DNA of 56,845 bases, counting the filler, from Dugesia japonica (Eukaryota): the NCBI GenBank assembly GCA_001938525.1. It is 5 parts of 5 records of this genome, joined end to end, with 100 filler letters (N's around TTAATTAATTAA, not from the genome) between each part and the next. Parts side by side here need not be neighbours in the genome. Positions count along the whole stretch, not along the records: positions 44,527 to 56,845 come from MQRL01508436.1; 4 more parts are not named here. One strand, written 5' to 3'. Below the pieces are notes generated by a model that was given only the letters and a program-made list of their open reading frames with translations, was not told where the DNA came from and ran no database searches. The translations under genes and the position numbers were made by a program. This document shows positions 346-56,845 of the stretch, piece by piece; position 1 is the first letter of the stretch, and every line of letters begins with the position of its first letter.

Positions 346-486
346 TTTTAAAAGACCTTCAAGATTNNNNNNNNNNNNNNNNNNNNNNNNNNNNNNNNNN
401 NNNNNNNNNNNNNNNNNNNNNNNNNNNNNNNNATAACATAAGTAGTCGCAGTATTGCAAAACATAATATTCAATGCAAATTGTTGA

Positions 487-2190: not shown

Positions 2191-2224
2191 TATCATTTTA
2201 CTTAGTATTATTTATTCTTTCTGC

Positions 2225-2581: not shown

Positions 2582-2644
2582 TCTTTATTTGAGTTAAGTC
2601 TAATTCAATTGAAAGTAATGCTATTATAAAGTCGACTATTCTTT

Positions 2645-3043: not shown

Positions 3044-3056
3044 TTTAATGATCATT

Positions 3057-3630: not shown

Positions 3631-3714
3631 TTATTTTTAAAGCTTATTAATAATTCAGTATATGGTTTATATTTGTTTAACCGGATCAATTAAATTAATT
3701 CCATCAAAACCCCA

Positions 3715-4191
3715 ATGTTCCCCATTAATTCATAAATTGTGAAAACTAATAATAATTACAGAGTTAAAGGGTCACAAAAACTAACTAAGAAAATGATCTT
3801 TCTTATAGGTAAACCATGCCAATTCAAAGTCAAAAGTGACAAGTTTACAATTATATTCTTCAGATCTGAAAAATGTAGAATAATGGGTTGTAAGAAACCA
3901 TTGGAACCACATGATTTGAACCCCTACAATATCAAAAATTTACAAATACAATGATAAACAATTTTTATAAATATAGGAGTTTCAATTAATTTGTAGAATT
4001 TAGCAAGAATAGTCAACTGTTGGTTTGAGACATAGTTATTTCCTGCTTTAAGATTGGTTAAATATGACCCTTTATATGTAAATGTGTTCTCAACAGGAAA
4101 ACTGGTAAAAATTGGACTTAAACATTTATACTTTCAAGGATATATAAATAACATTACTTCACATTTATTAAATCTGATTGAAAGAAATTAG
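3715..4191 (+). pseudogene. TBP-fold (TATA-binding-protein-like) gene of the Polinton-like element, copy 1
   Basis: Single frame with 5 internal stops. KFTIIFFRSEKCRIMGCK resembles TBP TTALIFSSGKMVCTGAK; CWFET*LFPALRL resembles YEPELFPGLIY; VNVFSTGKLVKIGLK resembles LIFVSGKVVLTGAK. Confidence 0.8.
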
Positions 4192-5976
4192 GAAATTAAA
4201 ATACAGATGCAACACAGGCACAACTGAAGTTTCAAATTATATCAATTAAAATTTAGATATTTAATTTTCAAATCCGTAAAATATAATATGTTGAAGTTTT
4301 TTATTATCATATATATATATATATATAAATTATTTCTGTTAAAATTATAATACTAAATAATTGTTATTTGAAAAACTAATTTCATATTCTAGCTACAGAA
4401 TGGATTATATAAATGGATAATACCGACTGTTATGCTTTTTATCATTTAAATATTAATGAAATATCATATTTCCTCATGATAATTTCTTTAATTGACTATT
4501 ATGTTCATAAATATTTGCATTAAAATATGTTTTCTTGAATTTCTGGAAAGAGAGAATTTTTTTAGTCAGTATTTTTTTAAGGAGCTAAATGAGCCGGTTA
4601 TTAAAATTATACTCTTATTATTATTAATAACTTTTCTTGTGTTATTCAATCCATAGAATTTTAAAAATAAAGCATAAACCTTTAAAATTTTGTNNNNNNN
4701 NNNNNNNNNNNNNNNNNNNNNNNNNNATTATAAAATTTCTTTGCTTTTATTATTCCTTTGATAAGTTTTACAAATATACTTGCCTGTAAAATGATCCTGA
4801 TCTCGAACTGGACTAATTAAAGGTTTCTTTTAAACAAATGACATATTCTCATTTATTGTCATTGTTTATAACTTTAAAAATGAATATTTTCTATTAATTG
4901 TTTGGTTTTGAAATCTAGCCATGTCTAGATAGTCTGCTGATGTCTGATACCTTGGTAATCNNNNNNNNNNNNNNNNNNNNNNNNNNNNNNNNNNNNNNNN
5001 NNNNNNNNNNNNNNNNNNNNNNNNNNNNNNNNNNNNNNNNNNNNNNNNNNNNNNNNNNNNNNNNNNNNNNNNNNNNNNNNNNNNNNNNNNNNNNNNNNNN
5101 NNNNNNNNNNNNNNNNNNNNNNNNNNNNNNNNNNNNNNNNNNNNNNNNNNNNNNNNNNNNNNNNNNNNNNNNNNNNNNNNNNNNNNNNNNNNNNNNNNNN
5201 NNNNNNNNNNNNNNNNNNNNNNNNNNNNNNNNNNNNNNNNNNNNNNNNNNNNNNNNNNNNNNNNNNNNNNNNNNNNNNNNNNNNNNNNNNNNNNNNNNNN
5301 NNNNNNNNNNNNNNNNNNNNNNNNNNNNNNNNNNNNNNNNNNNNNNNNNNNNNNNNNNNNNNNNNNNNNNNNNNNNNNNNNNNNNNNNNNNNNNNNNNNN
5401 NNNNNNNNNNNNNNNNNNNNNNNNNNNNNNNNNNNNNNNNNNNNNNNNNNNNNNNNNNNNNNNNNNNNNNNNNNNNNNNNNNNNNNNNNNNNNNNNNNNN
5501 NNNNNNNNNNNNNNNNNNNNNNNNNNNNNNNNNNNNNNNNNNNNNNNNNNNNNNNNNNNNNNNNNNNNNNNNNNNNNNNNNNNNNNNNNNNNNNNNNNNN
5601 NNNNNNNNNNNNNNNNNNNNNNNNNNNNNNNNNNNNNNNNNNNNNNNNNNNNNNNNNNNNNNNNNNNNNNNNNNNNNNNNNNNNNNNNNNNNNNNNNNNN
5701 NNNNNNNNNNNNNNNNNNNNNNNNNNNNNNNNNNNNNNNNNNNNNNNNNNNNNNNNNNNNNNNNNNNNNNNNNNNNNNNNNNNNNNNNNNNNNNNNNNNN
5801 NNNNNNNNNNNNNNNNNNNNNNNNNNNNNNNNNNNNNNNNNNNNNNNAATGGACTTTTAATTTTAATTTACTGTTCCTTCAACAGAAATATTAAAAATAC
5901 AAAAATTATTTAACTATATTTATAATAAAAAATTTTATTAGTAAACAAAAAAACCGAATTTCAATTTACTGTTTTT

Positions 5977-6243
5977 GTATTTCAGCCGTTGCCAAGATTA
6001 ATTTTGATTTTGATCATTTGTATTCCAGCTGTTGCCAAAATTAATTTTGATTTTGATAATTTGTATTCCAGCTGTTGACAAAATTAATTTTGATTTTGAA
6101 AATCTGTATTTCGGCCGTTGCCAAAATTAATTTTGATTATTTATATTCCAGCTGTTGCCAAGATTAATTTTGATTTTGATAATTTGTATTTCGACCTCTG
6201 CCAAGATTAAGTTTAATAATTTGTATTCTAGCTGTTGCCAAGG
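5977..6243. repeat. Tandem minisatellite, about 43-bp unit, about 7 copies
   Basis: Unit GTATTCCAGCTGTTGCCAA(A/G)ATTAATTTTGATTTTGATAATTT repeated head-to-tail with substitutions and short deletions. Confidence 0.9.
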
Positions 6244-6897
6244 TTATGATTTAATTTAATTTTAAATTTTCAATTTAATTTTTGTCAATTTTCTTTATTG
6301 ATTGGAATTTTTATATTTAATATTTTTTATACATGTATGTATGTATATACACACATGTATATACATACATCTTCTTTTTAAATAAACAATTACAAACAAT
6401 CACATCACAGTAGTCGTAATGTGCTGATTTATACGCAAGATTTTTAAATTCTTTGTAATCAATCTCAAAATAAATATTTCTGGTAGATTTGTGAAAAATA
6501 CTGAAATAAGAAAACTTTCGAAATTCAATTAAAAAAAAAAAATTCAAACTAAAGAATTTTTAAAATTACCTAACATACACAATTGGAATATTAACAAAAT
6601 CTATAAAATGTAAAATAGTAAAACGATAAAAAACTAGAAATAAAGACATTATTGATAAAAAAAGATTTATTTTTTATAATTTTCATAATTTATTGATCAC
6701 ATTTGAGCTCGTCTATATTAACACACTTAAATGAAATGCATTTAATGATTGTAATAATAACAAATCAAATAATTTACTTGGATTGACTGATTTGTGGTAA
6801 ATACTACATTTTATTGTTTTGATTGTCATGAATCGTCAATATTTCAAGTAGTATATAAGCCAAGTCAACTTATTTAACTACTTTANGTGGTTCCTTT

Positions 6898-12745: not shown

Positions 12746-13095
12746 ATATAAATGTAATTTTTATTTAATTTTCATCATAAATATCGCGTTACCATCAAAT
12801 TCTGTGATTTATAGGGCCATGCAGTTTTTTCATAAGATTAAGAATGGGCCAAATTATTTTATTGAATTTCTTGCTAGTTTCAAATTTTCGCGTATCGTAT
12901 ATTTTTTTGTTTTTTATTTAGTGACAAATACGATTGTCCGTAATTTAAGAAAAACTACAATGTTAAAATAATTTGATTTTTGTTTACGTTCTTGAAAAAT
13001 TACTGAAAATTTGATAATTATTATAAAATTTATTCGAATTGTAAAACCTATTTTTGAAATCATTTTAAAAAATGGAGTTACAAAAGTAATTAAGC

Positions 13096-16368
<3,273 letters not shown>

Positions 16369-16710
16369 TAAAGGATAATTCATTAATATAATATCGTTTT
16401 GAAAGTAGATATCAGTAAATACTATATTTTATTTAAACAGTATATTATTTTACATTGACAATTTGAATTTTTATGAGGTTCCCAAAAATTTGACTACGGA
16501 ACTAATTTAAATTATTGTTATCTTATATGTTTATTTTATCAAACAGTAATTCCCAATTAGAGTGCCTCGAGCTGTTGATTTTGCTTAATTATTTCATATT
16601 AAATTTACAAATTCCTTTCTAATTTTTTTATTATTTTAAAATACTCGAAGTTTAAAACTTTGAAGTATTCTCAGTAAAAATATTTTGATTTAAATGTTTT
16701 CTGTCTAAAC

Positions 16711-20221: not shown

Positions 20222-23200
20222 CTAGTATCCACCGCCAGCTTTCTTGGCAGACAATGGAACAGCGCCAGTATGTGTCAGATTGAATTGAGAAGAGCTTGGA
20301 TCCGCACTTGAGTAAAGACCACCACCGGGATTATTATTGATAGATACACCCGGTTTAAGTGCAGTTTGTGATGACAATGTCATATTAACTGCTGATGGGC
20401 CTGGATTTGTGCAGACCATAGCTGCTGTGGTTTGATTAGCTGCAACAGTCGCTCCATTGGCAAAATTCGAGTTCGAACTCGGCATTACTGCTCTTTGTTT
20501 GAGCATCGTCCAATCGAAAGTATAATCAAACTGATGATTAAGAGTGCGAAAGAGAATTCTAAAAAGTTGTCTCAAATACATGTAGTCTGGAGTTTCTTCG
20601 AAACGTAGACCTCTGCAGTAATTCAAATACATAGTAAATTCAGCTGGGAATCGTTGGCATAACATTTCAATTGATGTAGATATTTTCTTTTCACTAATCT
20701 TTTCATATTTTTGACGCTTAGTAGCAGCCTAATCAAAAATAAACAACTAAATTATGTAAAAGTTTAATTGTATTATTTTAATCTTGAAAAACTTGAGCAG
20801 TAATTAAATGGCAAACCATAACAATTCTTTAAAATAAAGTAAAAGCTTCGATCAAATTAAATTGTTGTTTTATAGATATTCAAAGTTTCGACTATTATGA
20901 CTTTTTATTAGTTTATTTATATTATAAATTTTATTTTAAACAATTTATTATAAATTTTAAACAATAATTATAAATATAAACAATTTTGTAACAATGTTTT
21001 AATATCGATTAAAAGTTTTATATTTAAAATTTTTAAATGAGAAAACTTTATAAACCAACTGAAAATATTATAATTTTAAGGGATATTTCCAAAAATGCCA
21101 GCTTTTGTAACGCTTATTTTTTATTAAAATAAAATTTAATATTTTTCAACCACTAAAATCATTCATTAACTTTATTTCTCAGCAATTTTACCAGAAAAAA
21201 AACATCTCGAGGAATATAATTAATATCTTCCGGTTAGAACAACGATTCTCATAGTTATAGGGGACAGTGAGAGAATTACTTTACGGAAATATTTTTCCAG
21301 CGACTTTGCAGTCCATTCGTAAATCGGCTTATCGCACTTGACTACGCACGAAGTTTAAGCATTCATTTACTTGCCAGATGGCACATATATTCGAGTATTA
21401 TTTTTTAGTGAATACTCTTGCTCAAATCTTTACTTTTCGTAAAACCACTAAGTTCAACACATTGGTCTGGTCTAAAATCAGCGAGTGTTTATCTGGATTT
21501 CGCTCAAAATACGGCGATTTCCGATGTTAATGATGATTAATTTTAGTTAATTTAAATCAAGCCATCAGCCATCAACAAATTTCTATAAGACCGACACGCA
21601 AAAATCCTAAAAATATTTGAGAACTACTGAATTAGAACAATATCTAAGATAAATTCTGCAATTGAGCAATTCTACAAGTTTTTCCAATCAAGATTTCAAC
21701 TGAATATCAAGTTCAAAATTCTGCTGGATCATCTCTAAGAAAAATTGTAAAGATATCCGAAAAGTCGTGTTCTTGTCATTATCCAAAAGAATTTAGTATC
21801 CCGTGTATATATATGTAGTGTTATTTTATTAAGAAAACGTAATTTGTGACGGAAAACGCCTAATTAGTAATATAAAAAAAATTTGTCAGAGGTCTTTATA
21901 TTTGCTTGATATTTCAACTCTTGAAAAAAAAACACTTGAGCCCTTAAAAGATATTCGCTGTGGCAGACAAAAGAATAAAAAGAATTCGGATTTCAGCGAA
22001 GTCCGCAAATTTGCAATTAAATTGTGGGGAAATGAGTATAACAGAAGATTTTGTCAAATTATTTATAATTAATAATTTATAATAATTAATAAGATAAATT
22101 ATGCAGCATTTGTGGAAATATCCTTAATTTTAATAGCAATTTTGAAATATATTTCATTACATGTTTCGAGAAATCACCTATATTCCAGTAAATTAATTAG
22201 TTAAATAACCTATTCAACAAATNAAATTAATTAACATTATTTTTTGGATAAATAGATCTAATCAATTCTTCACAACCTCTCTCCGAATAAATCTTAAGTT
22301 TGCAAATCAAATTTAATAAAAATATTTTTTGGATGAATAGATCTAATCAATGCTTCACAGCTCTTTCCGATATTCAATTTTTTTAAAGTTTGCAAAAATT
22401 TTTAAAATTTTAATATTATTATTATTATGGATTGTGAGACGAAAATTCAGGAACATCGTGTAGTGAACATTGTTAGTTGTAAATAGTATTTTTATTGGAA
22501 TTAATAATTTATTAGATTATTGAGACACTTCTCAAGGTATTTAAATTGAAAAATATTTAAATATTTTTCAGAGAGATAAGTATAATAATCAGAGATAAGT
22601 ATAATTTTGATCGAAATTAGTCATGCATGTTTTAAATGTGTGATAAACCATAACTAAATAGATTGCTTAGATTGAAATTGATAAAATTGATTAGATCTAT
22701 TGATCCAAAAATAAATATTCATAGATCCTTCCAGGTCTTTATTGAATATTTTTAATTAATTTAATTTGTTGAAGAGATTACATTAACATAATTTTAANAT
22801 AAGCTTTTTTATTCCTGAAGACAGCTAAAATTTTTATTTAATTTTTTTAAATTTATTTTTTAATTTAAATTAATTTTTATTTATTAAATTTTTTTTATTA
22901 ATAAAAAATGCTAATAAATTTCTGATGTCATACACCTGAATTGAAATAACAATAATGGTAAAAATTCAAGCTGTAATCAAATTTCTGATGCTAAGATATT
23001 TTATTAAACAAAAATATTTTAGTCTCGCATAATTGTATGGATAAGCGTAGTTTAACATAACTAATCATTTAAAATCTAAAAATAACTGACAAATTATACA
23101 GCCAAATACAATCAATGGCAAAGCACCAATCAACTTCTTTCCAAAAACTTAAAATTTACTTGATAATCAATCTTAAAGGTATAATTATATTCTGATTAAT

Positions 23201-26200
23201 TATGTTCTGTTTTAAGAACTTTAAGAAATTTAAATGATTATCTTTAAAACTCAGGTCGAAATTATACAATCATTATTTTTATTGAATTTGTGTAGCTATT
23301 TGATTTGTATTCTGTGTTTAAAATAAGAATTTTACACTTTTTTTTGAATTTACTATTGAATTTGTTAGCAAAATACTAAATACTAATTCAATTTTAAAAG
23401 TTTATTAAAAAGGTAATAGATTGTATCAACATGGTGGTTTCTATCACAGATTATTATTATTAGGTTGCGGAAATCTGTCAAACTCAAATGATCTCTCGGA
23501 CCGCATTAGACCAAATTCGTTAGTCAGTGGGTCGCACTAAAACTGTAACTCTAATACTGTATAATAGCAAAAAAAAGAGAAAAATTAAAAGAAATGTTAA
23601 GCGAATTCTACATATCTTATTTTTATTCTGAGTCGGTTTGTTATTTTATTATATATTAGTGTGTGCCGATAAAATGGCCGGGTTGCAAAAATGTTCATTG
23701 AAGGCCGCATGCCACCCCCGGGCCGACAGTTTGACACCCCTGATCTAGAGTAACAATGTGTAATAAATAATAAAACCCATTGAAAATATAATTAAAGTTA
23801 TAAAACAAGTGAAAATTTCAGGACTTTTGAAATATATAAACTCTTTCATAAGTCCTAACAAATTAAAAAATACTTGATTTGTATTATAAAACATCTTAAT
23901 TTATGGATAAATAATTTTTGAAAGTTAACTCATCTAGAAACGAAAAATCTATCACATAAGATACTACCTCTTAAATATTATTAATCTACTTTTAACTTAT
24001 ATAGGTACTATACCCTTTAAGTAGTCCTGCACCCTTTTAATCCAAAAATAAGTTTTCTAACCCTCTTAAAAATTACATTTATTTCAACATAACTTTTTAT
24101 AAAAAGATAAGCTTCTCTATATTTAAAAAATACGGTAACCGCTCTATATAAGCAATTCGACTGAATCAGATTTAAAAAATCCAAAATTTTTCAATAAAAT
24201 TTCTATACATTTCATTAAAAAAATCTGGACGAAATCTGTTCCCTCATCTTTTGTCATTTAACTACAAATAATGAATAATGATTTTCATGTTTCTACACCA
24301 CTGTGCATGCTTTTTCATAAATATCTTTTTTCTTATATATTCAACGGGCAGAATAGAATAATTTATAAAAATCCAAAAATGTTTTAAAATTTAGCTTCTT
24401 AACTATAACGATATAAACTTATATATCGTGAATTCTTGGTTTACATAAAATGATTTAAGAAAAGATTTCCAAACTTTCCCGTAAATCCTAAAATGTTAGT
24501 TGAACGCTTTATTTTTTCTATGGTAAATAATTAATTCAATTTTTTTATATTCCGCTTGAAAAATAGAAAAGAAGTCAACAAGTTACATCAATAATATATT
24601 CATTATTTTGTTGGCAACAATCAACGAGGCTAAAAATTAGAAAAAATGTTTTCTTATGAAACAGATAGAATCATGGTCATATTGAATATATACATTTAAT
24701 TGAAATATTTTTACGTACAACTATTACATTTTCCTGGAACACTGGTGTTTTGCGGAACATAGTTTGAGAAACCCTGACATAAAATACCAGATCACAGTCA
24801 AACAATTTAAACGCAATAATTTCACTATATTTCTTATTCTTAGACATTAGTAAAGTCAAATTTGTTATAGTATTCAATTTCGTTTAACTAAGTAAATATA
24901 TTATTTTAATTGTAGTTTCACACAAAAGCATTCAATTGAATGTTTCAAGATGTTCAACCACCAGATTTTTAGACTTTATTTTAGTATAAAATAACTGAAT
25001 TTTTTATTCAAAATTTTTTTCACAAGCAAAGTGCAAATAAGATCAAAGTTTTCATAGATTGTTCAATATTTTGGCTATGCCTTATTCAGGAACTATTGTT
25101 CAATGCATTCTGTGATAGATTTTTAAATAAAAACACAATTTAAATAATATTTATTAATTTTACAATTACAATTATTGCGAGAATTGTTGGACGTAACCAT
25201 TGATGGTTTTTCAGAATTCATCAAAATAAAAGTTTCGATCAAATTTTTTTTTGTTTTTGTTATTTCGAATTTGTCAGGAATATTTTTATCGAAGCTTTTA
25301 TTTTAATAATTTGATTAAAATTAATTTTCATTGGTTGGTAATTATAACATTAAATATATTGAACAATTAAAAATATTGAACATTCCAAAAAAATAGAAAA
25401 ATATCTTTGATCTTGTGAAAAAAATTTAAATAAAACAATTTTTTAAAATTACAGATCAATGATAACAATAAAAAAAATTATTTTAATAAACTCCGATTTC
25501 TGGTATTTTAATAGAAATAAATTTATAATGAATTAATTGATAATGATTAACTGTTAAAAGAACAGTTAACTCTTAAATAGTTCTAATTACATTTAATGCT
25601 AAAAACTTTGTAAACGATTTTTTTGTGCAAATTAATAAAGGAATTTTACAAATGATAACGCCAAAAGAAAACGAGATGATTTGGTGTTAAATAAAAGTTT
25701 AATTTAAGGATAATTAACAAACTTTTTTCTAGTTCATGGTTGGGCAACCTTTTAGTACATCAAAATTGTGTCTATTTTTCACTGGCGAAACTTAAAAGTT
25801 TACTTACAAAAAAANNNNNNNNNNNNNNNNNNNNNNNNNNNNNNNNNNNNNNNNNNNNNNNNNNNNNNNNNNNNNNNNNNNNNNNNNNNNNNNNNNNNNN
25901 NNNNNNNNNNNNNNNNNNNNNNNNNNNNTGTAAATGTTAAAATGTGTCAAATTAACTTTAATAAACACATATAAATCAAGTACAAATAGATGTGTTTATA
26001 TAAAAAATATTTATTATATTATAAATTTAAATTTGTTTAAGAAATAAAGAGCAATTTTTAGAAAATTCGCAGGCCAACTGAAATATCTAAATGGGTTGGA
26101 TCTGGCCCGCGAACCATAGATTGCACGTGTCGGCTTAAAAACCACAAAACCAGAAAGAAAAAAAGAGAATTAATGAGATTATGCAATTATGCACACAACA

Positions 26201-27807
26201 CAATATTTAACCATTTAAATAAATTGCAATTTAGAAGATTCCAAAAAACAATACGGAAAAAATTTCCGATTTTTTTCTAATCTCTACATGACAGAAATGG
26301 AACGGGTTCTAAACCCATTTATGGAGTATGAAATTGAAAATTTTGAAGAAAACTTAATATAAATTCTAAAGATTCGTCTACTTTTAAAAAGAATCTTCTC
26401 TGATAAAGGGTTTCGCAGTGTTGAACATCTTTAAACAGCAAATTTTCTCTATTGAATATCAAAGNNNNNNNNNNNNNNNNNNNNNNNNNNNNNNNNNNNN
26501 NNNNNNNNNNNNNNNACATTCGCATATATGAAGTCAAAGAAGCGCGAGACTTCAAATGATCGACGAGAAACTGCATCGAAGGAACTTTTCCTTTTAAAGA
26601 TTCAGCCTCATGCCAAACTTATTTATGCTGAAAAACAATATCAACATTCGCATTGATCAAAAATAAAGTTTTGTCTCTGATAGATTAAGCATATTATCAA
26701 TTAACTAATTTATAATTTTTTTAATGGGTACGCCACGACACTGTTAGACAACTACACTGATAAATTATTGATGTATTAGAATTTTACAAAATCAAAAAGT
26801 TTTGAATTGCAAAATTTATATAAGACAATTAATATTTTTTATTAAAATAAATATTAAAGTTTAAAATATTTATTAATTTTTTTTNNNNNNNAGCTTTTTA
26901 CATAAATTCAAATGAAATCGAATGAGTAAAAATCATACTTTTAAGCCTTGCCAAGGTAAAACACCAAGATTGAAATACATCAAAACATAACCCAACGATT
27001 CCATATCATCTCTTCTTGACTGTTCAATACCCAAATGAGCATTAATACTAGCATATCTAGCAGTACCAGTCAGATTTTTATCTTCCCTTGAAAAAAATAT
27101 TAATTTCAATTAATTAAACCTACTTAAAATACCTGTAGCTAATATGCTTACCAGTTCGATTATCTCTATATTTTTTAGCCAATCCAAAATCTATGATAAA
27201 AACTTTATTACAATGTCTTCCGATACCCATAAGAAAATTATCTGGTTTAATATCTCTGTGAATAAAATTCTTATTATGTACGTATTCAATGCGGGAAATC
27301 ATTTGATCAGCAAGCATTAACACAGTTTTCATTGTAAATCGACGAGAACAAAATGAAAACAAATCTTCTAAGCTTGGTCCTAATAAATCCATTACTAACA
27401 TATTATGTTCTTTGTCTTTTCCAAACCATCTTAATTTTAAAGATAATAAAAAAAATTACTACTTAATAATAACCTGATATGTGGAATACCGACTCCACCA
27501 GCTAAAATTTTATATAATTTACTTTCATATAATAATTGAGGATGTCTAGCATTTTGATGCTCAAGCTTTACTGCAACTTCCTTCAAATTAATAACAAACA
27601 ATATTTTTAAATAAGTATATTTATTATTAATATTATTATTTAATTACTTTTAATTATAAAATTTCAACATATGATTAATCATACTTCTCCGTTAGCCTGA
27701 TTAACGCCCAAATAAATTTCTCCAAATGAACCCGATCCAATCTTTCTTATTAATCTATATTTACCATTAACTATGAACTCTCTGGATGTATCTGCAGCGC
27801 TTGCCAT
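20222..27807 (-). CDS. CSNK1A1: Casein kinase I alpha, 393 aa; exons 27807-27685, 27580-27474, 27429-27133, 27086-26939, 20728-20222
   Basis: [95 protein letters not shown] (alpha-specific). GT-AG introns join into one 1182-nt open frame. Confidence 0.97.
21080..22124 (+). mobile_element. MULE element with SWIM zinc-finger remnant in CK1 intron 4
   Basis: TIR GGATATTTCCA..AATGC / GCATTTGTGGAAATATCC; exact 9-bp target site duplication TAATTTTAA; internal [15 protein letters not shown]. Confidence 0.85.
23470..23742. mobile_element. hAT-family MITE related to the ends of the 16711 element
   Basis: TGTCAAACTC ... GGCCGCATG...GGGCCG..AGTTTGACACCCCTG. Confidence 0.65.
25735..26133. mobile_element. 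Probable hAT MITE (gap inside)
   Basis: CATGGTTGGGCAACCT left end and GGCCCGCG..CCATAG-type right subterminus; degenerate. Confidence 0.45.
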
Positions 27808-43784: not shown

Positions 43785-44426
43785 ATGGAAGCAATTAGAT
43801 TTATAAAAGTAAACGAGCTTCTATCAATTAACTAATAAAAGAACATGGACACCTTGAATGGATACCTTAAAAAACTAACATAAATTCAAAAGAAATCTTC
43901 GTTTGGAGGAATAATCGGAACTTCTTTTGCGAAACAAAAATGAACCGTAGTGGTNNNNNNNNNNNNNNNNNNNNNNNNNNNNNNNNNNNNNNNNNNNNNN
44001 NNNNNNNNNNNNNNNNNNNNNNNNNNNNNNNNNNNNNNNNNNNNNNNNNNNNNNNNNNNNNNNNNNNNNNNNNNNNNNNNNNNNNNNNNNNNNTACTGGT
44101 GAAACAATTACGGCAGAAACGTATTGTGATTAAATCGATTAAATGAACAAGAAACTGAAGCTGGGTTATTCGGCATTCGTCAACAGAAAGAAACCACTTT
44201 TTCTCCATGACAACCTTAGGTCACATATTGCGCAATCTACACTACAAAAATTAAACCAGTGAGACTATAAAATGTTTCCTCACCTGGCATACTTATCAGA
44301 CTACTCGTCTAATGATTACTTTTCCTATAAACATTTGGACAAGTTCTTAGACGGAAAAATCGTCAGCAATCAAGATGCTGTCAATAATGCCTCCGAAAAT
44401 TTGGTGCATTTCTATTCAATTTGGAT
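43785..44426 (+). mobile_element. mariner transposase remnant (C-terminal half)
   Basis: GETITAETYC, FLHDNLRSH, HLAYLSDYSSNDY resemble HDNARPH and YSPDLAPSDY. Confidence 0.85.
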
Positions 44427-44526
44427 NNNNNNNNNNNNNNNNNNNNNNNNNNNNNNNNNNNNNNNNNNNNTTAATTAATTAANNNNNNNNNNNNNNNNNN
44501 NNNNNNNNNNNNNNNNNNNNNNNNNN
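44427..44526. other. Artificial scaffold-joining spacer
   Basis: N44 + TTAATTAATTAA + N44. Confidence 0.95.
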
Positions 44527-44934
44527 CAAGATGTAACAAGCAAAATGAAGTTTCCTATCGGTAAACCTTCTCAATTTGTTGACAAAGGTGGGAAATATAC
44601 GTTAATATTCTTTAAATCAGGAAATTGTCGAAAATTGGAATGTAAAAAACCGTTGGAAATGGAAAAATTACAGTATGATATTAAATATATTCGTTTGCAA
44701 TCATAAACAATTGTAATCAATTTGGGAAAAGTTATTAATTTGTATAAATTAGCAAAAGTGACACAATGTTGGTTTGGACCAGAATTGTTCCCTGTATTAC
44801 GACTTACAATGTATGATCCTGTATGTGTTAACGTATTTTCATCGGGAAAAATTGTAATACTCGGTATAAAGACACTACACTATCAAGGATATGTAGATAA
44901 TATCATTTCTGATTTATATAATTTATTTGTTTAA
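44527..44934 (+). pseudogene. TBP-fold gene, copy 2 (5' end cut by scaffold start; one in-frame TAA)
   Basis: KYTLIFFKSGNCR...IRLQS*TIVINLGKVINLYKLA...CWFGPELFPVLRL...VNVFSSGKIVILGIK; colinear with 3715-4191. Confidence 0.85.
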
Positions 44935-45092
44935 TTTTGCAACATGAATGCACAATAATGCAATATGAATGCAAGTATATGAAGGCATTTTCATGTTTGA
45001 TAATTGCATGTTTTTCATTGTTCAATTTGTGTTAAACAGAAAATTTTATATAACACATTACATTTGTCATCTTAATCAGTGGTTATTTAAAA

Positions 45093-45324
45093 ATGAATCC
45101 AATTCAAGTAGAACCTCTTAGAAAGATTTGCATCGAATCGGCGGAGTCAGATGGCTAAGAAGATCTGATTCATGAAACGAGTAAATGTTAATTTGATTTT
45201 TATTCATAATTTATAATTTTCATTTCTAGATATTATCGCGCTGATTCTTTTTAGAAAGAAACTAGTTTTGGCAAAAGAAGAATTACAATTCGTGTTATCG
45301 AAATTCTACAAGAAGATTTACTAA
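45093..45324 (+). pseudogene. Small two-exon ORF (intron 45181-45229), one premature stop
   Basis: MNPIQVEPLRKICIESAESDG*EDLIHET|NIIALILFRKKLVLAKEELQFVLSKFYKKIY*; 49-nt GTAAAT...TTCTAG intron keeps frame. Confidence 0.45.
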
Positions 45325-45768
45325 CACCTTGCTTGTGAGTGTTATAGGTGTAGGTATAGGTATGTGTGTTATTATGTGTTAGGTATTTTATAGGTGTGTT
45401 ATAGGTGAAAATAATCCTCAATATGTAAATTTTAGTTAGTAAAAATTGTTTTTTTTTACTTTGTTATTATTATTATTTAATAAAGTTTTAATTGTCATAA
45501 AGGTTTTTTTTATGAATAATTTATTTGTTCAAAGTTTTATTTAATTTGGAAATTATTACTTGAAAGTTAGTTTTATTGTTTGTCATTTACTTAATTTTTT
45601 ATTATTAAGACTTGTTTTTATAAATAGATAATGAATTATTATACTTATTTAACAGAGTTTTTTATAATTTAGAAATAAGTTTCTATATATTTAATTTGTT
45701 TGCTAAATATTACTATAAGAGTTAATAAAAGAGACAAATAAATAACAATTATTTTAATAATAAAAAAT

Positions 45769-46165
45769 TTACAAAATGTCTCGAATTTTCCAAATTGGAG
45801 AGTTAACTTTTTTATTAATTAAGTTAAGATTCTTTCCATTTTTCTTGACTCCTTGTATTTCCACCTGTATCATATATTGTTTAGATTTTTCGAATACAGT
45901 CGATTTTGCATCATTATAATTGATAAAAACTGTATCCTTTATTGTAATTGTTGGTTCTATTCTTTTGAATAATAAATTCAAAGTATTCATGTCTTTCGAA
46001 CCGATATCGGATATCACCAAACTATAGGTAGATCGTTTTATCTTCACAGGTTCCTAAATGAAAATATTAAATAATTAAATAAAATAAATACAATTACTTG
46101 AAACATATATACTATTGAACTCTTGGGGAATTTCATTTTGATTCCATGAAATTCTGAAGGTTTTC
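45769..46165 (-). CDS. Spliced ORF of unknown function (intron 46054-46097), 5' end in gap
   Basis: KPSEFHGIKMKFPKSSIVYMFQ|EPVKIKRSTYSLVI...YMIQVEIQGVKKNGKNLNLI; 44-nt GTAATT...TTTAG phase-0 intron joins two open frames. Confidence 0.5.
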
Positions 46166-46532
46166 NNNNNNNNNNNNNNNNNNNNNNNNNNNNNNNNNNN
46201 NNNNNNNNNNNNNNNNNNNNNNNNNNNNNNNNNNNNNNNNNNNNNNNNNNNNNNNNNNNNNNNNNNNNNNNNNNNNATAGTCTGCGTTGAAAAACATTAA
46301 ATGAATAGTTTGTATGTATTGCTTTTTATTGGTTGAAATTGTGTTACTTTTATCATGTTTTGATTGGTTTTTCTGTGTTTAAACAATATAAGTGCAATAC
46401 AAATGCAATTCCGTTGCCAGTTAAACAAAGCAAATACATTTTGATGATTGATTGAATTTAATTGGTTAGGTTGGGTTACAACAAATTTGTATAAAAAAAC
46501 AATTTATTTTACCGTTTCCATATAATTTCAAA

Positions 46533-46960
46533 ATGATTTTAAGAAATGGAGAAGAAATATCTGAACGAGGTAAAGTTTTATTATTAGTTATTTATTTATT
46601 CTTTTTTTCCAGATCTTACAAGAAGAATAATAAATGAAATGCATTCAGAATGCGAGAGAAAATTCAAACTGTTGGAAGCAGAAGAATATTGGGACTACGT
46701 TCTGGAAAGAGTTGATTGATATCAAGAGAGTTTTAGACCTTTTCAAAAACAAATTTGAAATATTATCAATGTGTGGAACCAATCCATGTCCATACTGGGT
46801 AATGCGGGACGTTATTTTAGAAAGANNNNNNNNNNNNNNNNNNNNNNNNNNNNNNNNNNNNNNNNNNNNNNNNNNTGTGTGGAACCAATCCATGTCCATA
46901 CTGGGTAATGCGGGACGTTATTTTAGAAAGATTTCCATGAATTTGGTTTTTTTGTTGTAA
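46533..46960 (+). pseudogene. Small two-exon ORF (intron 46570-46612), premature stops
   Basis: MILRNGEEISER|DLTRRIINEMHSECERKFKLLEAEEYWDYVLERVD*...; strong G|GTAAAG donor and TTTTTTCCAG acceptor. Confidence 0.5.
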
Positions 46961-47057
46961 TAAGTTGTAGTTTGTTATTAAATAAATGTTCACTTAAACT
47001 AACTGTTATTACTAAAAAAATAATTTTAAAAAAAATTCTGTGTATTGGGGGTCAATC

Positions 47058-47320
47058 ATAAAAACGATCTATAAAAACGATGACTCACCTTGATCTATAA
47101 AAACGATGGCTCGCCCTGATATATAAAAAGATGAGTCATCATTATAACTCATACCTATGAGTCATTGTTCTTGTTTCAGACATTGATGAGTCATGCATTT
47201 GAATCATTCTGATCTATAAAAACGATGGCTCGTTATTATGACTCATACTTATGACTCAGTGCCTTTGTTCAAGTGATCGATTAATCATACTTATGACTCA
47301 TTGTCTTTCTTATAAAAGTT
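47058..47320 (+). promoter_or_regulatory. Array of TATAAAA boxes and AP-1-consensus sites built on a 26-bp unit
   Basis: TATAAAA at 47070, 47096, 47122, 47215, 47311; TGA(C/G)TCA at 47081, 47132, 47158, 47187, 47239, 47252, 47294. Motifs are seen directly; function is inferred. Confidence 0.6.
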
Positions 47321-48199
47321 CTTTGTCTAGGCAGGGGGTGATTCAGTGCACCACAGTCTACCTACCTAAATGAGTTATAAGATGATGATAAAGAGCATCT
47401 TTTATTAATAAGCGACAATATTCTATAAGTGTAAGAGAACAAGTGAGATAAAGTGAGATGAAGTGAGATGTTGGAAATTTAAAAGAACATTTCTAAAATC
47501 ATAGAAAATTACTAGAACTTTTTAAAATCATTGAAAATTTACATGAACTGTTTTAAAACTAGTCAGAATTTACATAAGCTTATCGTTAATAATGATTCTA
47601 ATACTGTCAAGTGACAATCTAGTAATTGTCCACTCAATCAATTGTTCTTTGATTGTACTATCAATCAAATCAAACTTTTATCTGTATTAATACTGATATT
47701 TCCAAATTTTTAATGACTTTATGGTCTAACACTAACAGCATTTTCTTACAGTTCAATAGTGGTTGGTTCGATTCTTATGATTGTCCATTTATTTAACACT
47801 TTGCTTTTCGGATTTTGTCAGTCTTATATAAAGTTTGTCTATTTTATAATATATTCAGAATCACCAAAACAAATTTTCTATCTAATAGATGCTTTGATGT
47901 TTAAATTTGAGTTACTTTTTATTTTTTCAAAATTTGATGGTTCGTCATTAGAAACTATAATTATCAACGAGAGCTACCTATATTAAGTACTTGTTTTTAA
48001 TTTATTTCATCAATAATAACTTTTGATGAATTTTAGTCGTATTAATAATGATATTTGAAGTATTTTTATTGGATGGATGGTTCAGTGTTAAGAACTTTCT
48101 TTTGCAACTCATCAGTGGTGGGTTCAAATACAATAAATGAGCATTAATTTACATTTTGCTTTTTGAATTTATACGATTTTTATATAGGTCTATTAATTA

Positions 48200-48960
48200 T
48201 ATATGAAAAGTTCTTAGGTAATTTATTTATTATGGAAAAATGTTTTATAGAAAAATGTCTTAGCTAAATTTTTATTTCATAAAGAATATTTACTTATAAG
48301 TTTTTTATATAGGTTTATTAATAACTAATATGCTTTTATGGAAAAATGTTCTAACTAACATGTTTTTTTAAAGAAACACGTCATAGGTAATATTTTTTTT
48401 ATAGACAAATGTTCTAGTTAATATATTTTTTAGGAAAAATGTCCTAGCTAATATGTTTTTTAATGGAAGAATATTCTAACTAATATGTTTTTTGCGAGAA
48501 AATAAAAATATCTTATGAGTATTTTTAAATGAAAATTATTGACTAGTAAAATTCGGTAATTGAAAATCACGAAGGACACACAAAAGATTTGTCACATGTC
48601 ATATACTACATATTAGATCATCAACTGCATGACCTTTAAAATTAATGCACACACCTAATATGAAAAGTTCCTAGCTAATATGATTTATTATGGAAAAATG
48701 TTCTAACTAATATGTTTTTTATAGAAAAATGTCATAGCTAATATGTTTTTTGATGAAAAATGCCACTACTAATATATTTTTTATTGAAATTTACCTAGCT
48801 TATATATTTTTTTAAAGATAAATGTTCTATCTTATATGCTTTTTATAGAAACATGACATAGCTAATGTCTTTTTTCATAGAAAAATGCGTAAGCTAATAT
48901 GTTTTTTTATGAAAGAATGTCACTAGTAATGTGTTTTTTATAAATAAAATTCTATGTTTT
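48200..48960. repeat. Degenerate tandem array of an about 33-bp unit (TATGGAAAAATGTTCTAACTAATATGTTTTTT)
   Basis: Many head-to-tail copies; the same unit recurs at about 50930-51050 and 52588-52670. Confidence 0.85.
48498..48658 (-). mobile_element. Solo mariner 5' end, copy of about 52427-52587
   Basis: High similarity over about 160 bp including TIR TTAGGTGTGTGCATTAATTTTAAAGGTC. Confidence 0.8.
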
Positions 48961-49680
48961 TATCATTTTGTAAATAAAAGGTTTAATTTGAATATTTTAT
49001 CATGTAAATATCTCAGACTCCTCTTTTTGGTTATTTTTATTAGATATAATTAATAATAGAAATATCTCAATGACTTTTAAGTTTTAAAATAGTTATATTT
49101 TATCATTTAAATATCTCAGCCTCTCCTGTTTGAATATTTTATCATGTTAATTAAATTTAATTAGTTTAAATTAACTTATTTAAATTTAAGACTGCCTAGG
49201 ACAAAACTATCAGAGATTTGAATAAAATTACTTTAGATTTGTTTAATTTGTTAGAAAAAATTAGAGAATTCGCAACACGGTTGCCAAACAAGTACAATTC
49301 TTTACAATCAAAAACCCTATACACCTATTAACACTATACACTAACAAACCTTATACACTCAAAACATATTTAGTTATATAGTATTTATACAGCAATTTTA
49401 AGAAATATATATGAAAATGTTCCACACTCATAAACCATATAATATACGGTTACTATGTAAACATTACAAGGAAACTATGCTAATAATACATTTATTAACC
49501 TTTTTAAATAAGGTACTCATAAACCCTATACACTCATAAACCCTAAACACTCATAAACCTCATAGATTTATAAAAATATTTGCTTACATAGACTTATAAG
49601 GTATTAATACAGTAATATTAAGTTATATATATGTGTGTGTGTGAAAATGTTTCACACTTATAAACTCTATAGTATAGTAT

Positions 49681-50911
49681 AGAGAGCTCTTGAGCCACAG
49701 GTGGCTTTTTTAATCATATTTTGTTGCACTTAAGTGATATTGAAAAATTTAAAAGTTTACTATTTTTTCTAGTGATTTTATTTTTTACTGTTTAAAAATA
49801 GAAAAACTAGTAAAATATAGTAAAAAATGAAATTTTAAAGTGTTATTCAATTTATTTAAATATATACAGGAAGTTCCAATTTAAGGTTACATTTTAAATT
49901 TAAATCCATTTATTTCTGTTTTGTTTTAATTAATTATTAATTGTTGAATAAGCAATAGTAATTCATGCGGTTTTTTAAAATGAATCGTTATACCATTGAA
50001 CAAAGAGTATTTATGGTAAAAATTATTTTAAATACGGCGGAAGGTATGCCAAAATTCGCAGAAAATTTAAGTTCGAATATGGAAGAGAAAGTTGTCCGTC
50101 ACATGTGACAATTCAAAAGGTTTTCAAATAACTTATAAAAAGTAACTCGATACAAGATGAATGACGCCAAAAATATCATAAAAGTGGTCGCTAGAAAACA
50201 AATATTTCAGGTGTAAGCTGTAGTGTGAGTAAGAAAACAAAAACGTCAATCCGTCGTCGTTCACAACAACTATTCATTCCAAGAACGTTATTCAAAGTTT
50301 TGCACGAGAATCTTCATTTTAAGGCATTCAAGATTCAAATAACTCAACAATTAAAGCCTGAAGACTTTGAAATACGCCGTAAATTTAGTAAATGAGACAT
50401 TTAAAATATGCATGAAAACGAGACATTTTTCCAAAAAGTGATCTTTAGCGACAAAGCATATTTTGAACTAGGAGGATTTGTGAACACACAGAATTGTAGA
50501 ATTTGGGGCAATGAAAACCTACATGAAATACTAGAAAAACAATTCCATTCACCAAAGGTAAATGTTTGGTGTGGTTTTAGGGCGGGTGGTGTTATCGGTC
50601 CTTATTCTTTTGAGAATGAACCTGGTATATCTGTAAAAAATGGGTGTTTGCTATGCAGCAGCAGGAGGTTACTAGCATGACATTATTTTTCATTATGAAA
50701 CCGCAATATATTTACTATCATTGTAAATAAATATATTGCTACATTTCATATTTTTAGGTTCTTTTATTGAAAATTTAAAATGTAACCTTAAATTGGAACA
50801 CTCTGTATTTAGTAATAATACAAAATTTCACATCTTGAATTTTAATTGTGGCTCTCGAAAAAAAATAATTCAATTATTGGCTCTTTACTTTATTAATTTT
50901 GCCCACCTCTG
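49681..50911. mobile_element. hAT MITE split by the rosa-like insertion
   Basis: GAGCCACAGGTGGCT left subterminus; TGTGGCTCT...TTTGCCCACCTCTG right end. Confidence 0.6.
49867..50805 (+). mobile_element. Tc1/mariner rosa (DD41D)-like element, internally deleted
   Basis: TA|CAGG..GTTCCAATTTAAGGTTACATTTTAAATTT TIR mirrored at about 50771-50805|TA; MNRYTIEQRVFMV...FSDKAYF.LGGFVNTQNCRIWG...KVNVWCG...IGPYSFE. Confidence 0.88.
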
Positions 50912-51849
50912 CTCTATACATTCATAAAAAAAATTTACTTATAAGTTCTTAAATGGGTTTATTAGTTATATATAAAAATGTTCCATGCTTTTATAATTTT
51001 TAAAAGAAAAGTTCCTAGCTACTATATTTTTTATGAAAAAGTTTTGTTTTTATAATTTTGAAATGAAATATTTTAATTTGAATATTTTATCATGTTAATT
51101 AATTTTAATTAATTAATTAATTTTAATAATTTAATTTTAATTAATTAATTTTAATTAACTTATTCAAATTTTAAACTTTCCAATATCTTGCAATAATATC
51201 AAGAATTATCCACTGTAATAAATTATTTTTGTAAAAAGGAGTTTTTTTAACTAAAATTATTAATATTGTAATAGAAATGAAACACAGTTTCAACATCCAA
51301 AAAAATCAAGTGTCTGGGAATTTTTTAAACTACTCAAACAACTAAAATATAACAATAATCTGTGGTAACAATGTAAATAATGCAAAGTAACTATGTAAAT
51401 TAATAAATGGTAACTATGTAAATTAATAAATGGTAACTAATAATAAATTAATTTTTAAGAATTTAAATTCATATTACCATAATTATAATAATTAGAAGTA
51501 TGATAATATCAAATTAAATAATCAATAAATATATTGAATTTTTAATTTCATATTATCATAATTATAATAATGATTAATATTTTTAATTTCAAATACATTT
51601 ATGGTATTGAAATTAAAAAATCAATAGATATATTGATTTTTAAATTTTATTTATACTTAATTGTATTTAAAATTAAAAAATAAGAATAAAAATGAAGAAT
51701 TAAAAAATGGTGAGTTTTTTTCTTATGTATGTTAAATGTTTTATTTTTTATATGATTAATTTAAATTATATTTTTAAATGTTAATTTAATATAAAGTTAG
51801 ATAAATAAAAGGTTCCATTATTATAGGGTCAATGTTATTACACAACATT

Positions 51850-52587
51850 AGTTTGGCACCATTGATATTTGGTTTGGCAATAGACTTTGATGGTTCTCCC
51901 GGTCTGCACCATGATTTTCTGATCTTCGGGTTGTCAAATCGTACTTATTTTTCGTCACCTGTGAGGATACGATGTAAAATGTTTTTTCTTTGATGCCTTC
52001 GAAGCAGTAATTTACATATGAATTTACGCCTTTCCACGTCTCTGGACTTTAATTCATAGGGTAGCCAATTTCCTTGTTTTTGTATCATTCCAATTGAATT
52101 CAGGCATCTAGAAATTGTGGTTCGACTGACATCTAATGATTTCGCAAGTTCTTCCTGCTTTGGGTCTTGATTGACTAAAGCCTCCAATTCCATGTCATTC
52201 ACTTTTGAAAGTTGTCCCGGACGTATCTTATCCTCAGTATCAAAATCACCACTTCTTAAGCGGCGAAATAAGTATTCGCATGTTAAAATCGATGAGCTAT
52301 ATTCGTGATAGGCTACTGACAGCATTTGGTGACATTCCCCAGCGCTTTTTTTTCAAATGAAAGCCAAAAAGCAAAGCTTCCTGCAAATAGCGTTTTGTTG
52401 TGAAAAAAGTTGACATTTTGTTTGCTAAAAATAAAACTATCTTATGAGTATTTTTAAATTAAAATTATTGATTAGTATAATTTGGTAATTAGAAATCACG
52501 AGGAATACACAAAAGATTTGTCACATGTCATATACTGTGTATTACATCATCAACTGTATGACCTTTAAAATTAATGCACACACCTAA
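51850..52587 (-). mobile_element. mariner (Mos1-like) 5' half
   Basis: TIR then TA at 52588; ORF 51945-52325 with RSGDFDTED..RPGQ, WLPYEL, ILTGDEK. Confidence 0.9.
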
Positions 52588-53149
52588 TATGAAAAGTTCT
52601 TAGCTGATATGATTTATTATGGAAAAGTACCTAGCTAATATGTATTTATTATGGGAAAATGTTCTAACTAACCGGATGGAAACACTGCTACCGGAGATGC
52701 ACATCTTGAAAATCGAGCTTAGTCTAATTAGAACTACACAAGCTGGTTGATAAGTTTATTTATGAATTAATGAAAATTATTAATGAAAATTAATATTATT
52801 AATATTAATGAAAATTAATATGCATATATTTTTATCTTTCGTTTCTCGCCGTGGTCTACAGATGTCAACAAATATCACCTCAAATGGTTCAAAAGCTTCA
52901 GAAATCATTGTATCCTCTTTGGTTCATTGAATTTTGATTGCTTTCTGGTATTAGAAACACGCCCTTATCAACTCTTTTGTTTTTTCTGTCAAACAATCCC
53001 CCACATATATAGTGCATTTATAGGTTATATCGACAAAGTTGATCGTTTTTAAATTTTAAATATTTATAAATATTTTAAATTAAAATTGCATAACTTTAAA
53101 TCTATGTTTTATAAATTAATTTCAGATTATTAAAGAATGCTCAAATATT

Positions 53150-53750
53150 AAAATGTATTTCTTAATTGAAACCCTCAGACGTAACAACATGAAGCTTGGT
53201 GAGTTTTATGAGATCCGCCATAAAGCATGACCGAAGGAATTTATAAGTGTTATTCAAATTAGAAGACTTATGAGACAATTGCATACTGGAAAAGATAAAC
53301 ATTTCAGCGCCAGAAAGTAAGTGGAAGAAGAAAAAGAGATGAATGTTTACTTAACATTGATAATATTAAAAGGTATATAGAATATGGTAATATGACTATT
53401 GATAAAATACCCGAATATTTGCAAGTAACCCGTTCATGGGTCAACGTGTAGTTCAAGAAGACCTAGAGGTTTTATGATATCAATTAAAATGACTACCTAA
53501 TGTTCTTACAGATTTCAAAAATGCTCTTCGGATTGATCGGTGTAATGAATTAATTATTTTATTACAAAAAAGTTGTGTAGACTAAATCTTGTAACTGTTG
53601 TTGAAAAATTGGTACTTGGCTAACCGAAATCGTTGTTGCTAGTGGGTATGGTTCTTCTTAGACCTTTGTCAGATCAACGATGAAAATAAATACATGGTCA
53701 TTATTGCTATTTTACAAAGAGGGGTTCTTATATACCATTTATCCTTAATG
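53150..53750 (+). mobile_element. Highly decayed mariner-like transposase
   Basis: K*LPNVLTDFKNALRIDRC resembles WVPHxLT...R...C; NLVTVVEK resembles IVTGDE. Confidence 0.5.
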
Positions 53751-56700
53751 CACCGTGAATTTCATCTCCATTATAAACTATCTCCATTCTATTCTATACT
53801 TTCTGCCAAAGTTCTCCATCTTCAATCTGCCTGCCTAAATTTGCCTCTAAATTACGAATATAACTTTCCTTATACAACTTTTGACGATGCTCTTTTTTTG
53901 TTTTAGTTTAAACCTAAATATATTCAAAAATGAATGTAATAGATGATCTGATTATATATATTTATATATAGTTTATTGAGTGTATTGAATTAAATTAATA
54001 GATCGGTGGTTTGTTTTAATTGATTTAAGCGTGTTTGCAAGTAAATATTAGCGTAATTTATAAATTAATTGTTGAATAGATGAAGTCGAATTAAATATTG
54101 ATTAAATATATTGTAGTATAATTAATTGGTTTGCAAAGTTAATTGGACGGGTTTAAGCTGACAAAGTATAAAATTGGTGAGTAAATAGAGTAAATTAATA
54201 ATGTTAATAGTGTGGTTAGATAGGATAAATTTAGTAAATAAAGTATGTGAATGAAACATTTCCTATATTTGTATCAAAAATCTGGATATATTTGTATGAG
54301 ATTACCTTATGCTTTTCATATTTGTACAAACCACTAAATTCTAGTAAAAATTAACATCTATTTAGAATTGCATAAAATTAGTATATGTATTATTAAAATT
54401 TATTGCTTATTCTAATGAAATCTATATTTGACATGATTAAAATATTAGTTTCCATGTTAAAACTAATATTTTCCACAGTAAAACTCTTATTTTCTATGAT
54501 GAATTATGTATTTCCATGCTGAGATGTCTATTTTCTCCTATGAATATTAGAATGATTACTCGGTTTGAATGATTGGTTAAATCCATTCAGGTATCTTCTT
54601 ATACATGTGCAATATAAGTATAATATTAGTGCAATGTGATTGCGATATGAATACAATACATGCACACTGAAGAGTAATCATTATTTACTGTGTGAATTCT
54701 AATAGTTATAGGGGAAAATAGACCTAACGCGTGGCATGTAACGTAGCCACTATTCACGGTACATCGATTGACACATGATCGATTTATGACATTTGCTTAT
54801 TATTTAATGAAATCAAACATGAGTTAATAGTAGTTAATAAGTTACATAGCAAATTCTTCCAGGGGGATATTAGAATTTTTATGGCATGCAAGGTTTGTAT
54901 CACACATACACAAACTAACGAGTCTATTAAACCTAATACATTTATTAAACATAATAAATTATTAGTCATTGAATGATACAACAATTTGATAATAATAATA
55001 CCAGAATAATTTGAGAGTAACCTTCAAATTACTCTATTTAATATATAAAACTTCATTTGTATGTTTTTTAACATATTTACTGTAATTAAAATAAAATAGT
55101 TTAACATCAAATTTTTCAATACTGTGTTAGAACTGCGTGTGAGAAAGAAAATATGAAAACAAGGAAATCGTAAAATTGAAGAAATTTAAACATAAAATAT
55201 GTATATGGTAATTTTAGAAATAATGATTCTTTCATTAAATGAAGAAGTAGACAAATTTAAAGATTGTATTCATATATAATTTGTGACTTGCAGAATTCTG
55301 AAGATATAGTTTTCAATATTTAATCCAAAAGATCATGGTTTAACTGAAATGTGATGTAATAATGAGAATTTTATATATTTTATTATGTTTTTATATTATA
55401 CAAATTAACTATGTAAATAGGGCTGCCAACACCTACAAACTCGAACTTGGGACATTATAAAATTGAAATCTTTATAATTTATAATGCTTAACAAATATAT
55501 AAAATGGTTTTCATTTTTTTTGACACTTTTATTACTTACACATGATGGTAATGTGTGTGATTTTAACGATATCGTGACTAATACCAAAAAGATATAAACA
55601 AAACAATTATTTTTACATATTACAATTAAAACTTAAAAAATTGCCATTTATGAAAAATGGAAAAATCTTGTAAAAACGGAAAGACAATTGGATTATATCT
55701 CCCGAGTCAAAGATTACGTCAAGACGGGAAATGAAATCCAGTTCCAGAAGACTCCCGGTAAAAACGAGAGAGTTTTCAAGTCTAGATGTAAACATAAACT
55801 CTTAAACATTTATAGAAATATTCCAATCGGAAAAAAGAACTGCATTTTACTATACAATGTTTACAAAAAATTGAATACATTCAACATTAAATAGGGGTAA
55901 TTATGACAAGAATTTTTTTAATAATAATAATAATAATGAAGTGAAATAAAAAATAAAAACATTTGGAATAATTATCGTGACCTAAACAATACTAGGCTAC
56001 TTAGTGTTAAGTTCAATGATAACCCTACCAATAATATCATCATAATTTAAGATTAATACAATAATGGCAATTATAATAATAATAAAATAATGATAATAAT
56101 AATCATCCTGTTAAAAGGAGTATCAGATTTGCCCATGAAAACCAGATAAAAACTAAAAGGGATTATTAATAGAACAATAACAATTGAGTGGTAAAAACAG
56201 CTAATACAACAGTCATTTTAAGAACTATCACCATACGCGAGTTAATATCAGTGTAGTTAAATATAAGAATAAAAATTCTGTTAATGCCATCAAGGCTAAT
56301 AATAAATGACACTTTTAGATTCTAATAGTAATAAAAGTCACAACGTCCTTAATAAAGTTTGTTTCCCGAGGGGTTAGTGATATAACTACTAGTTTGGTTT
56401 CTGAATTTTAAACAACGAGAATAAGAGTGAAAATTTTATTAGCAAATACATTAATTTTAATATCCATAAAATAAAAATGACAAATTTTAAAACAAATTTA
56501 ACACTTACTAATTAATTTATTTCAACAATATACCGTTATTATTTTAATAATATTTTCTTGTTGTTTGATTATGTTTTATATTTTCTTTAATTATGGTTAT
56601 CTTTAATGGTCTTTCTATTGATTTTATTCATTTCTTATTTTGCTTTTGACCATCCGACCTTCTTCTACTTATTTACTTTCTGTTGTTATTCGCCTGGTAA

Positions 56701-56801
56701 TGATTATTGATTATTGTTTTCGTGATATTTCATTTCCTCTTATTATGCCGTGTTTGGCCCCTGAATGAACTTCTCTTAAGAACAGGTGTTTCATTCCAAC
56801 A

Positions 56802-56802
<1 letters not shown>

Positions 56803-56845
<43 letters not shown>
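56803..56845. repeat. (TAA)n microsatellite
   Basis: Pure TAA run to the window end. Confidence 0.95.

Follow-up and report, generated by a model that had tools for sequence, protein, structure and literature searches.

Which protein reads a dense array of TATA boxes and AP-1 sites lying close to a transposon-borne gene for a TATA-binding protein (TBP): the product of that gene, or the factors of the host? The question is raised by positions 47058–47367 of a 56,845-nt stretch of Dugesia japonica DNA (assembly GCA_001938525.1; hereafter the window), in which positions 44527–56845 come from MQRL01508436.1. A first-pass annotation had proposed that this segment is the terminal inverted repeat (TIR) of a TBP-encoding Polinton, in which the element TBP and a host bZIP factor meet at the end of the element.

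Virions of animal Polintons have so far not been observed, according to PMC8097293. In the adintovirus/Polinton group, a figure legend of Starrett et al. (PMC8502044) marks a TBP-like gene. To this the present locus contributes an AP-1 array that is a candidate for a terminal one, an end motif with a period of 4, and a result that speaks against the viral TBP having the array as its target.

Motif Content and Build of the Array

A motif scan of the window placed five TATAAAA boxes in the array, all on the plus strand (47070, 47096, 47122, 47215 and 47311) and the first three at 26-bp steps, together with seven perfect TGA(C/G)TCA sites (47081, 47132, 47158, 47187, 47239, 47252 and 47294). Both counts reproduce those first reported. 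The seven AP-1 sites make up all but one of the eight in the window, the eighth being at 43588, and five is the window maximum of TATAAAA per 310 bp, reached in the array alone. In 2000 dinucleotide shuffles of 47058–47367, the means were 0.06 for TATAAAA (maximum 1) and 0.11 for TGA(C/G)TCA (maximum 2), a comparison that overstates significance because a 94-bp duplication inside the array makes its sites non-independent.

The 26-bp tandem (47058–47138, plus strand) consists of 2.8 copies with 83% matches according to TRF, and holds three TATAAAA boxes and two AP-1 sites. The exact unit quoted by the first-pass annotation occurs only once. The 94-bp duplication (47116–47317, plus strand; 74% identity, TRF and sequence comparison) holds six perfect AP-1 sites, near-matches and a further TATAAAA. 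It also contains two composites of the form AAAG(A/G)CA-N-TGASTCA, at 47266 and 47308 on the minus strand, found by pattern scan. The array motifs arose by tandem duplication, as 26-bp units and a 94-bp pair, so that the sites are not independent of one another.

All five TATAAAA boxes face 47367, away from the genes of the element. The array contains no YATAAAC (motif count 0), and neither a second copy of it nor an LTR partner was found within the window. An Rfam search over 44000–50000 returned nothing at E 0.1, and a 24-mer pattern had 0 matches in metagenome contigs. A 17-mer of the 26-bp unit gave six viral-contig matches, none with Polinton genes by tblastn, a count that looks like chance.

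Polinton Origin of the TBP Cassette

Positions 44527–44934 (plus strand) hold a decayed Polinton TBP-like gene, with its 5' end cut at 44526 and one internal stop. It matches Pfam TBP with 40 bits (E 3e-10) and has 15 homologs of 78–160 aa at 50–87% identity. An alignment of 15 TBP proteins yielded 80 metagenomic loci, the best 80 of 121. At least one core Polinton gene was present in 40 of these best 80, and in 28 of the 38 that measure at least 3 kb. Pfam confirmed the integrase (rve), polymerase B and A32-like ATPase labels in one locus (L012); the capsid, PW and PZ labels were given by position and size. By its relatives, the TBP-like gene at 44527–44934 is of Polinton origin, as the first reading of the locus had held. 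Two apparent accessory genes were seen among the loci, a ubiquitin-conjugating enzyme and a dual-specificity phosphatase (L012:225–719, minus strand, and L020:4008–4316, plus strand).

The neighbouring gene X (45769–46297, minus strand), decayed and spliced, is by tblastn a relative of the TBP neighbour in related Polintons; its start at 46297 and its exon structure were read by eye. Window positions 45778–46053 match ORFs of L032, L020 and L026 (E 2e-8), with an additional short match at 46040–46165 (E 0.011). A relative of gene X lies beside TBP in 18 of the best 80 of 121 loci, and its atlas scores are all below 0.9. Gene Y (46533–46986, plus strand) is a decayed spliced ORF with an AATAAA at 46981. 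It links the cassette to the array. Only its position attributes it to the element, and no homolog was found in protein and locus-ORF searches. The interval between genes X and Y, 46298–46532, carries three ATTGG (CCAAT) boxes and a TATAAAA at 46490, and is likely a bidirectional promoter for both. This interval is covered by related copies, in which gene Y has high summed depth.

At most 2.2 kb separates the TBP gene from the array, and this interval contains two N gaps. Core Polinton genes are absent from 44527–47367, a 2.8-kb decayed fragment cut at 44526. Sequence matches revealed a second decayed TBP-carrying Polinton at 435–4203 of the window, where TBP (3712–4203, plus strand) adjoins pieces of an ATPase (3063–3665), an integrase (2211–2506) and a capsid-like gene (435–1079), these three on the minus strand. 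On the minus strand, which is that of the core genes, YATAAAC occurs there three times (3671, 3077 and 2832), once just before the ATPase. About 1.8 kb to the right of this TBP remnant, a 43-bp tandem array (5961–6260) could be a subterminal repeat of the second remnant, or a satellite.

A Candidate Terminus at 47367

The array ends in a stretch of 40 bp (47328–47367) with a GC content of 55%, reached by only 0.3% of the N-free 40-mers of the window; the GC-richer end had been correctly noted before. The candidate terminus closes this stretch: starting at 47367, the minus strand reads (AGGT)2AG, with the boundary drawn from one copy, and AGGTAGGTAG occurs nowhere else in the window. Because another AG-led period-4 repeat, different but equally long, lies at 53836 of the window, the end motif says little by itself. 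Its pattern gave 23 matches in viral contigs, none with Polinton genes by tblastn, and this number again looks like chance.

PMC8097293 gives a mean length of 402 bp for the TIRs of vertebrate Mavericks and describes their ends as short tandem motifs, thought to permit jump-back initiation. About 400 bp separate 47367 from gene Y, the last ORF-like stretch, a distance that fits this mean. (AGGT)2AG is absent from the end motifs given there for vertebrate Mavericks. No inverted partner of the end motif was found within the window, nor any TIR pair in seven long related loci, all of them partial. That 47367 is the terminus of the element is moderately probable, the boundary being drawn from a single copy. 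Of the earlier view of the segment as the TIR of the TBP-encoding element, the Polinton link stands, and a terminus at 47367 is plausible from its AG-led tandem end and GC-rich stretch.

Related Copies and the Right Flank

Reads of 4 of the 24 listed runs were aligned to 44527–48300 at 80% likeness. They represent related high-copy families and not the present locus, the long pieces shown differing from it at about 7–19% of letters. RNA reads are uninformative on the present locus because they are mostly less than 90% identical, and none of the records listed as containing the stretch is registered as RNA. In a related genome, 48 RNA reads exit the array at 47331 into a G-rich and then C-rich stretch, which ends like the tail in the window (agreement 0.51). 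Of the 15 joints shown (136 in all), 5 leave out some of the array, whose length therefore varies among copies. Four differences inside the array are among the 40 shown of 714 overall, and 3 of these 4 lie in or beside AP-1 sites, with the match kept or improved. Summed depth, which by the tool's own warning is not copy number, was 1.2–1.7k over the 26-bp TATA units, 8.6–29k over the next two, AP-1-rich bins and 247–563k over the TBP gene, so that coverage of the TATA units by related copies is lower, by a factor of 7–17, than that of the two adjoining bins.

To the right, 47368–48180 is a repetitive flank with 10-bp and 29-bp tandem units and a duplication of about 350 bp (TRF and sequence comparison). 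The duplication, at 47676–48170 (69% over 141 bp), is high-copy in related genomes. Summed depth does not drop at 47367, and it is high in the flank, itself high-copy (7–15k at 47425–47550, 158–209k at 47551–47676 and 84–119k at 47803–47928). No loose ends at 47367 were seen among the 24 shown of 3046. These two observations would fit an element that extends past 47367. The flank would then be the remains of an accessory gene or further terminal-repeat sequence, with the array as an internal enhancer and the AGGT repeat as a coincidence. The same account could draw on a weak reverse-complement likeness of 47371–47423 to the array, a segment chosen post hoc whose score was reached by 2 of 1000 shuffles and 1 of 815 control 63-mers; this likeness perhaps reflects an insertion into an older copy. 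An internal position of the array is nevertheless unlikely. The flank matches neither the ORFs of the best 80 of 121 TBP Polinton loci nor protein libraries, in a search whose sensitivity is low because the flank is decayed. No link from array to flank was present among the 24 long pieces or the 15 joints shown, and the GC-rich, AG-led tandem end, seen also in related reads, is what would be expected of a terminus.

By eye, the right flank had also been read as a Gypsy integrase C-terminus with an LTR, and as a helical repeat protein; protein searches supported neither. Beyond it, a 31-bp minisatellite family occupies three places in the window (48187–48979, 50939–51045 and 52428–52671).

Composite Sites Shared with TBP-Carrying Loci

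A third account assigns the array to some other repeat, as its end, its LTR or a minisatellite, that lies next to the Polinton fragment by chance. In its favour, the window is crowded with tandem arrays and with remains of unrelated transposons, gene Y has no assignment, and there are gaps in between. LTR U3 regions, moreover, typically contain multimers of AP-1 and TATA motifs. The LTR itself is not in evidence: the window holds no second copy of the array that would form a paired direct repeat, and the flank, whose decay lowers the sensitivity of the search, gave no protein match, gag or pol included. The absence of a second array copy or LTR partner in the window also speaks against this account, as does one contig per DNA run that joins 47033 to the distal array, over 20 letters only.

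The composite motif points the same way. AAAG(A/G)CA-N(0–1)-bZIP occurs twice in the window, both times within the array, and four times in 3 of the best 80 of 121 loci (shuffled mean 0.0), a pattern defined after viewing both the window and the loci, of which the three are related (TBP 64–74% identical). A looser first version of the pattern had matched the loci once and the window not at all. All three loci carry the gene X-TBP cassette, and the array thus shares the composite with these TBP-carrying Polinton loci. An origin of the array in another repeat is distinctly unlikely. AAAG(A/G)CA-bZIP composites were seen repeated in non-coding DNA of the regulatory cassette, at L022:2100–2370, 330–365 and 5030–5150, L037:913 and L020:4426. 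Over the best 80 of 121 loci, bZIP sites are modestly enriched (120, against 87.5 expected, SD 12.7). A density like that of the array was not found in the 80 loci, few of which likely reach a terminus; the maximum was two sites per 310 bp.

Two TATA Types Divided by Gene Class

TATA variants were scored in the 200 bp upstream of classified ORFs in the best 80 of 121 loci. ORFs were left out if their flank was shorter than 200 bp or their match started late, and identical upstream regions were collapsed. Upstream of core genes, YATAAAC was present in 70 of 88 regions and TATAAAA in 7 of 88, the latter a background level (background rates: YATAAAC 8%, TATAAAA 7%, TATAWAW 19%). In the regulatory cluster, YATAAAC was found in 5 of 81 upstream regions, and TATAWAW in 49 of 81. 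Because the loci are related, the comparison was repeated after clustering at 70% identity. YATAAAC then held the majority in 28 of the 42 clusters of core genes (ATPase 5/8, major capsid 7/10, minor capsid 10/12, integrase 6/12) versus 0 of 37 TBP clusters, a contrast that comes mostly from relatives whose TBP is at most about 50% identical. TATAAAA was the majority state in 2 of the 42 core-gene clusters. Position 7 is C in 72 of 91 YATAAAN matches before core genes, and A in all array boxes.

The element TBP, of about 150 aa, resembles cellular and archaeal TBP (Pfam PF00352) in its second repeat, which is recognisable and aligns to solved TBPs (phmmer, best E 5e-12). It is unlike them in its short length, in a first repeat too divergent for phmmer alignment, and in having QS in the second repeat where cellular TBP has QN. 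The QN of the second repeat plays a role in DNA contact. Searched against viral contigs, the TBP alignment gave one weak match only, of 33 residues.

The simplest reading of this correlation is that the element TBP would serve YATAAAC and that the array boxes are of host type. Host factors likely read the array, because related elements place a different TATA variant, absent here, before capsid and packaging genes. The claim that the array is a target of the viral TBP was not borne out, and it is rather unlikely that element TBP on the TATAAAA units and a host bZIP factor bend the terminus into an origin or enhancer complex: the TBP gene is close by, adenovirus inverted terminal repeats (ITRs) hold NFI and NFIII/Oct-1 sites for replication (PMC5717082), and the retained second repeat might bind both motifs, but the element-specific motif is YATAAAC with a C where the array has A, the 26-bp TATA units are scarce among related copies, the boxes lie 50–300 bp inside the end, and a spacing of 26 bp, some 2.5 helical turns, would oppose the bends to one another. 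The search for the target of the viral TBP is redirected from canonical TATA arrays to YATAAAC.

Discussion

The reading that we favour, at little better than even confidence, is that the array is a subterminal control region in the right TIR of a decayed TBP-encoding Polinton/Maverick, likely read by the host. Three of its components are observed: the motifs, an origin of the TBP cassette in Polintons, and a division of the two TATA types between gene classes. The terminus, all binding events, enhancer activity and inducibility are proposed. Host bZIP (AP-1) proteins would bind the TGA(C/G)TCA sites, and host TBP the canonical TATA boxes. Tandem duplication would have built an AP-1 multimer acting as an orientation-independent enhancer of an early cassette (gene Y, gene X and TBP), whose promoters appear to be of the ordinary CCAAT/TATA type. 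Once made, the element TBP would read YATAAAC before the integrase, ATPase and capsid genes, and the terminal (AGGT)2AG may serve jump-back initiation of protein-primed replication.

The element resembles Polintons/Mavericks (adintoviruses; PMC8502044, PMC8097293) in that relatives of its TBP gene sit with an rve integrase, a protein-primed polymerase B and an A32-like ATPase, and in that its candidate end is AG-led and tandem, with an implied TIR of about 400 bp. It differs from them as a 2.8-kb decayed fragment without a TIR pair or target duplication, and in its period-4 end motif, where Barreat and Katzourakis give (AG)3, (AGT)2 or (AC)3A for vertebrate Mavericks (PMC8097293). No published report of a dense AP-1/TATA array near a Polinton end was found in a literature search that covered few subscription journals and not Repbase. 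A precedent for host-factor sites in a terminal repeat exists in the same virus lineage, the adenovirus ITR, which includes bZIP-type (ATF) and GC-rich Sp1 sites (PMC5717082). Unlike those, the array sites are AP-1/TATA multimers from tandem duplication. The promoters of virophages and Polinton-like viruses offer a parallel, in that a motif common to numerous upstream regions suggests a single dedicated transcription factor. Virophages and Polinton-like viruses are reported to borrow giant virus machinery, whereas the element here encodes a TBP-like protein of its own, with YATAAAC as the candidate motif.

AP-1 responds to stress and injury. A prophage-like switch in two steps may be imagined, in which the terminal AP-1 array senses a wound or stress and turns on the early cassette, and the mini-TBP then reads TATAAAC to express the genes for integrase, ATPase and capsid, with a new period-4 jump-back motif at the end of the element; as a whole this scheme is doubtful. 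If the terminal array were a host-read enhancer and the element TBP did read YATAAAC, stress or injury that induces AP-1 would be a named trigger of animal Polintons, and YATAAAC a named late promoter, the copy studied here being a decayed fragment.

The surrounding window, with 26% GC, is eukaryotic, containing intron-split kinase and sirtuin genes, transposase debris and many scaffold gaps. Gaps of 50 N flanked by duplicated sequence, such as 46826–46875, are assembly artefacts. Two host genes are placed between the first and second Polinton remnants, the sirtuin (Pfam SIR2) at 12996–16371 on the plus strand and a casein-kinase-1-like kinase, the CK1 label being given by eye, at 20222–27643 on the minus strand.
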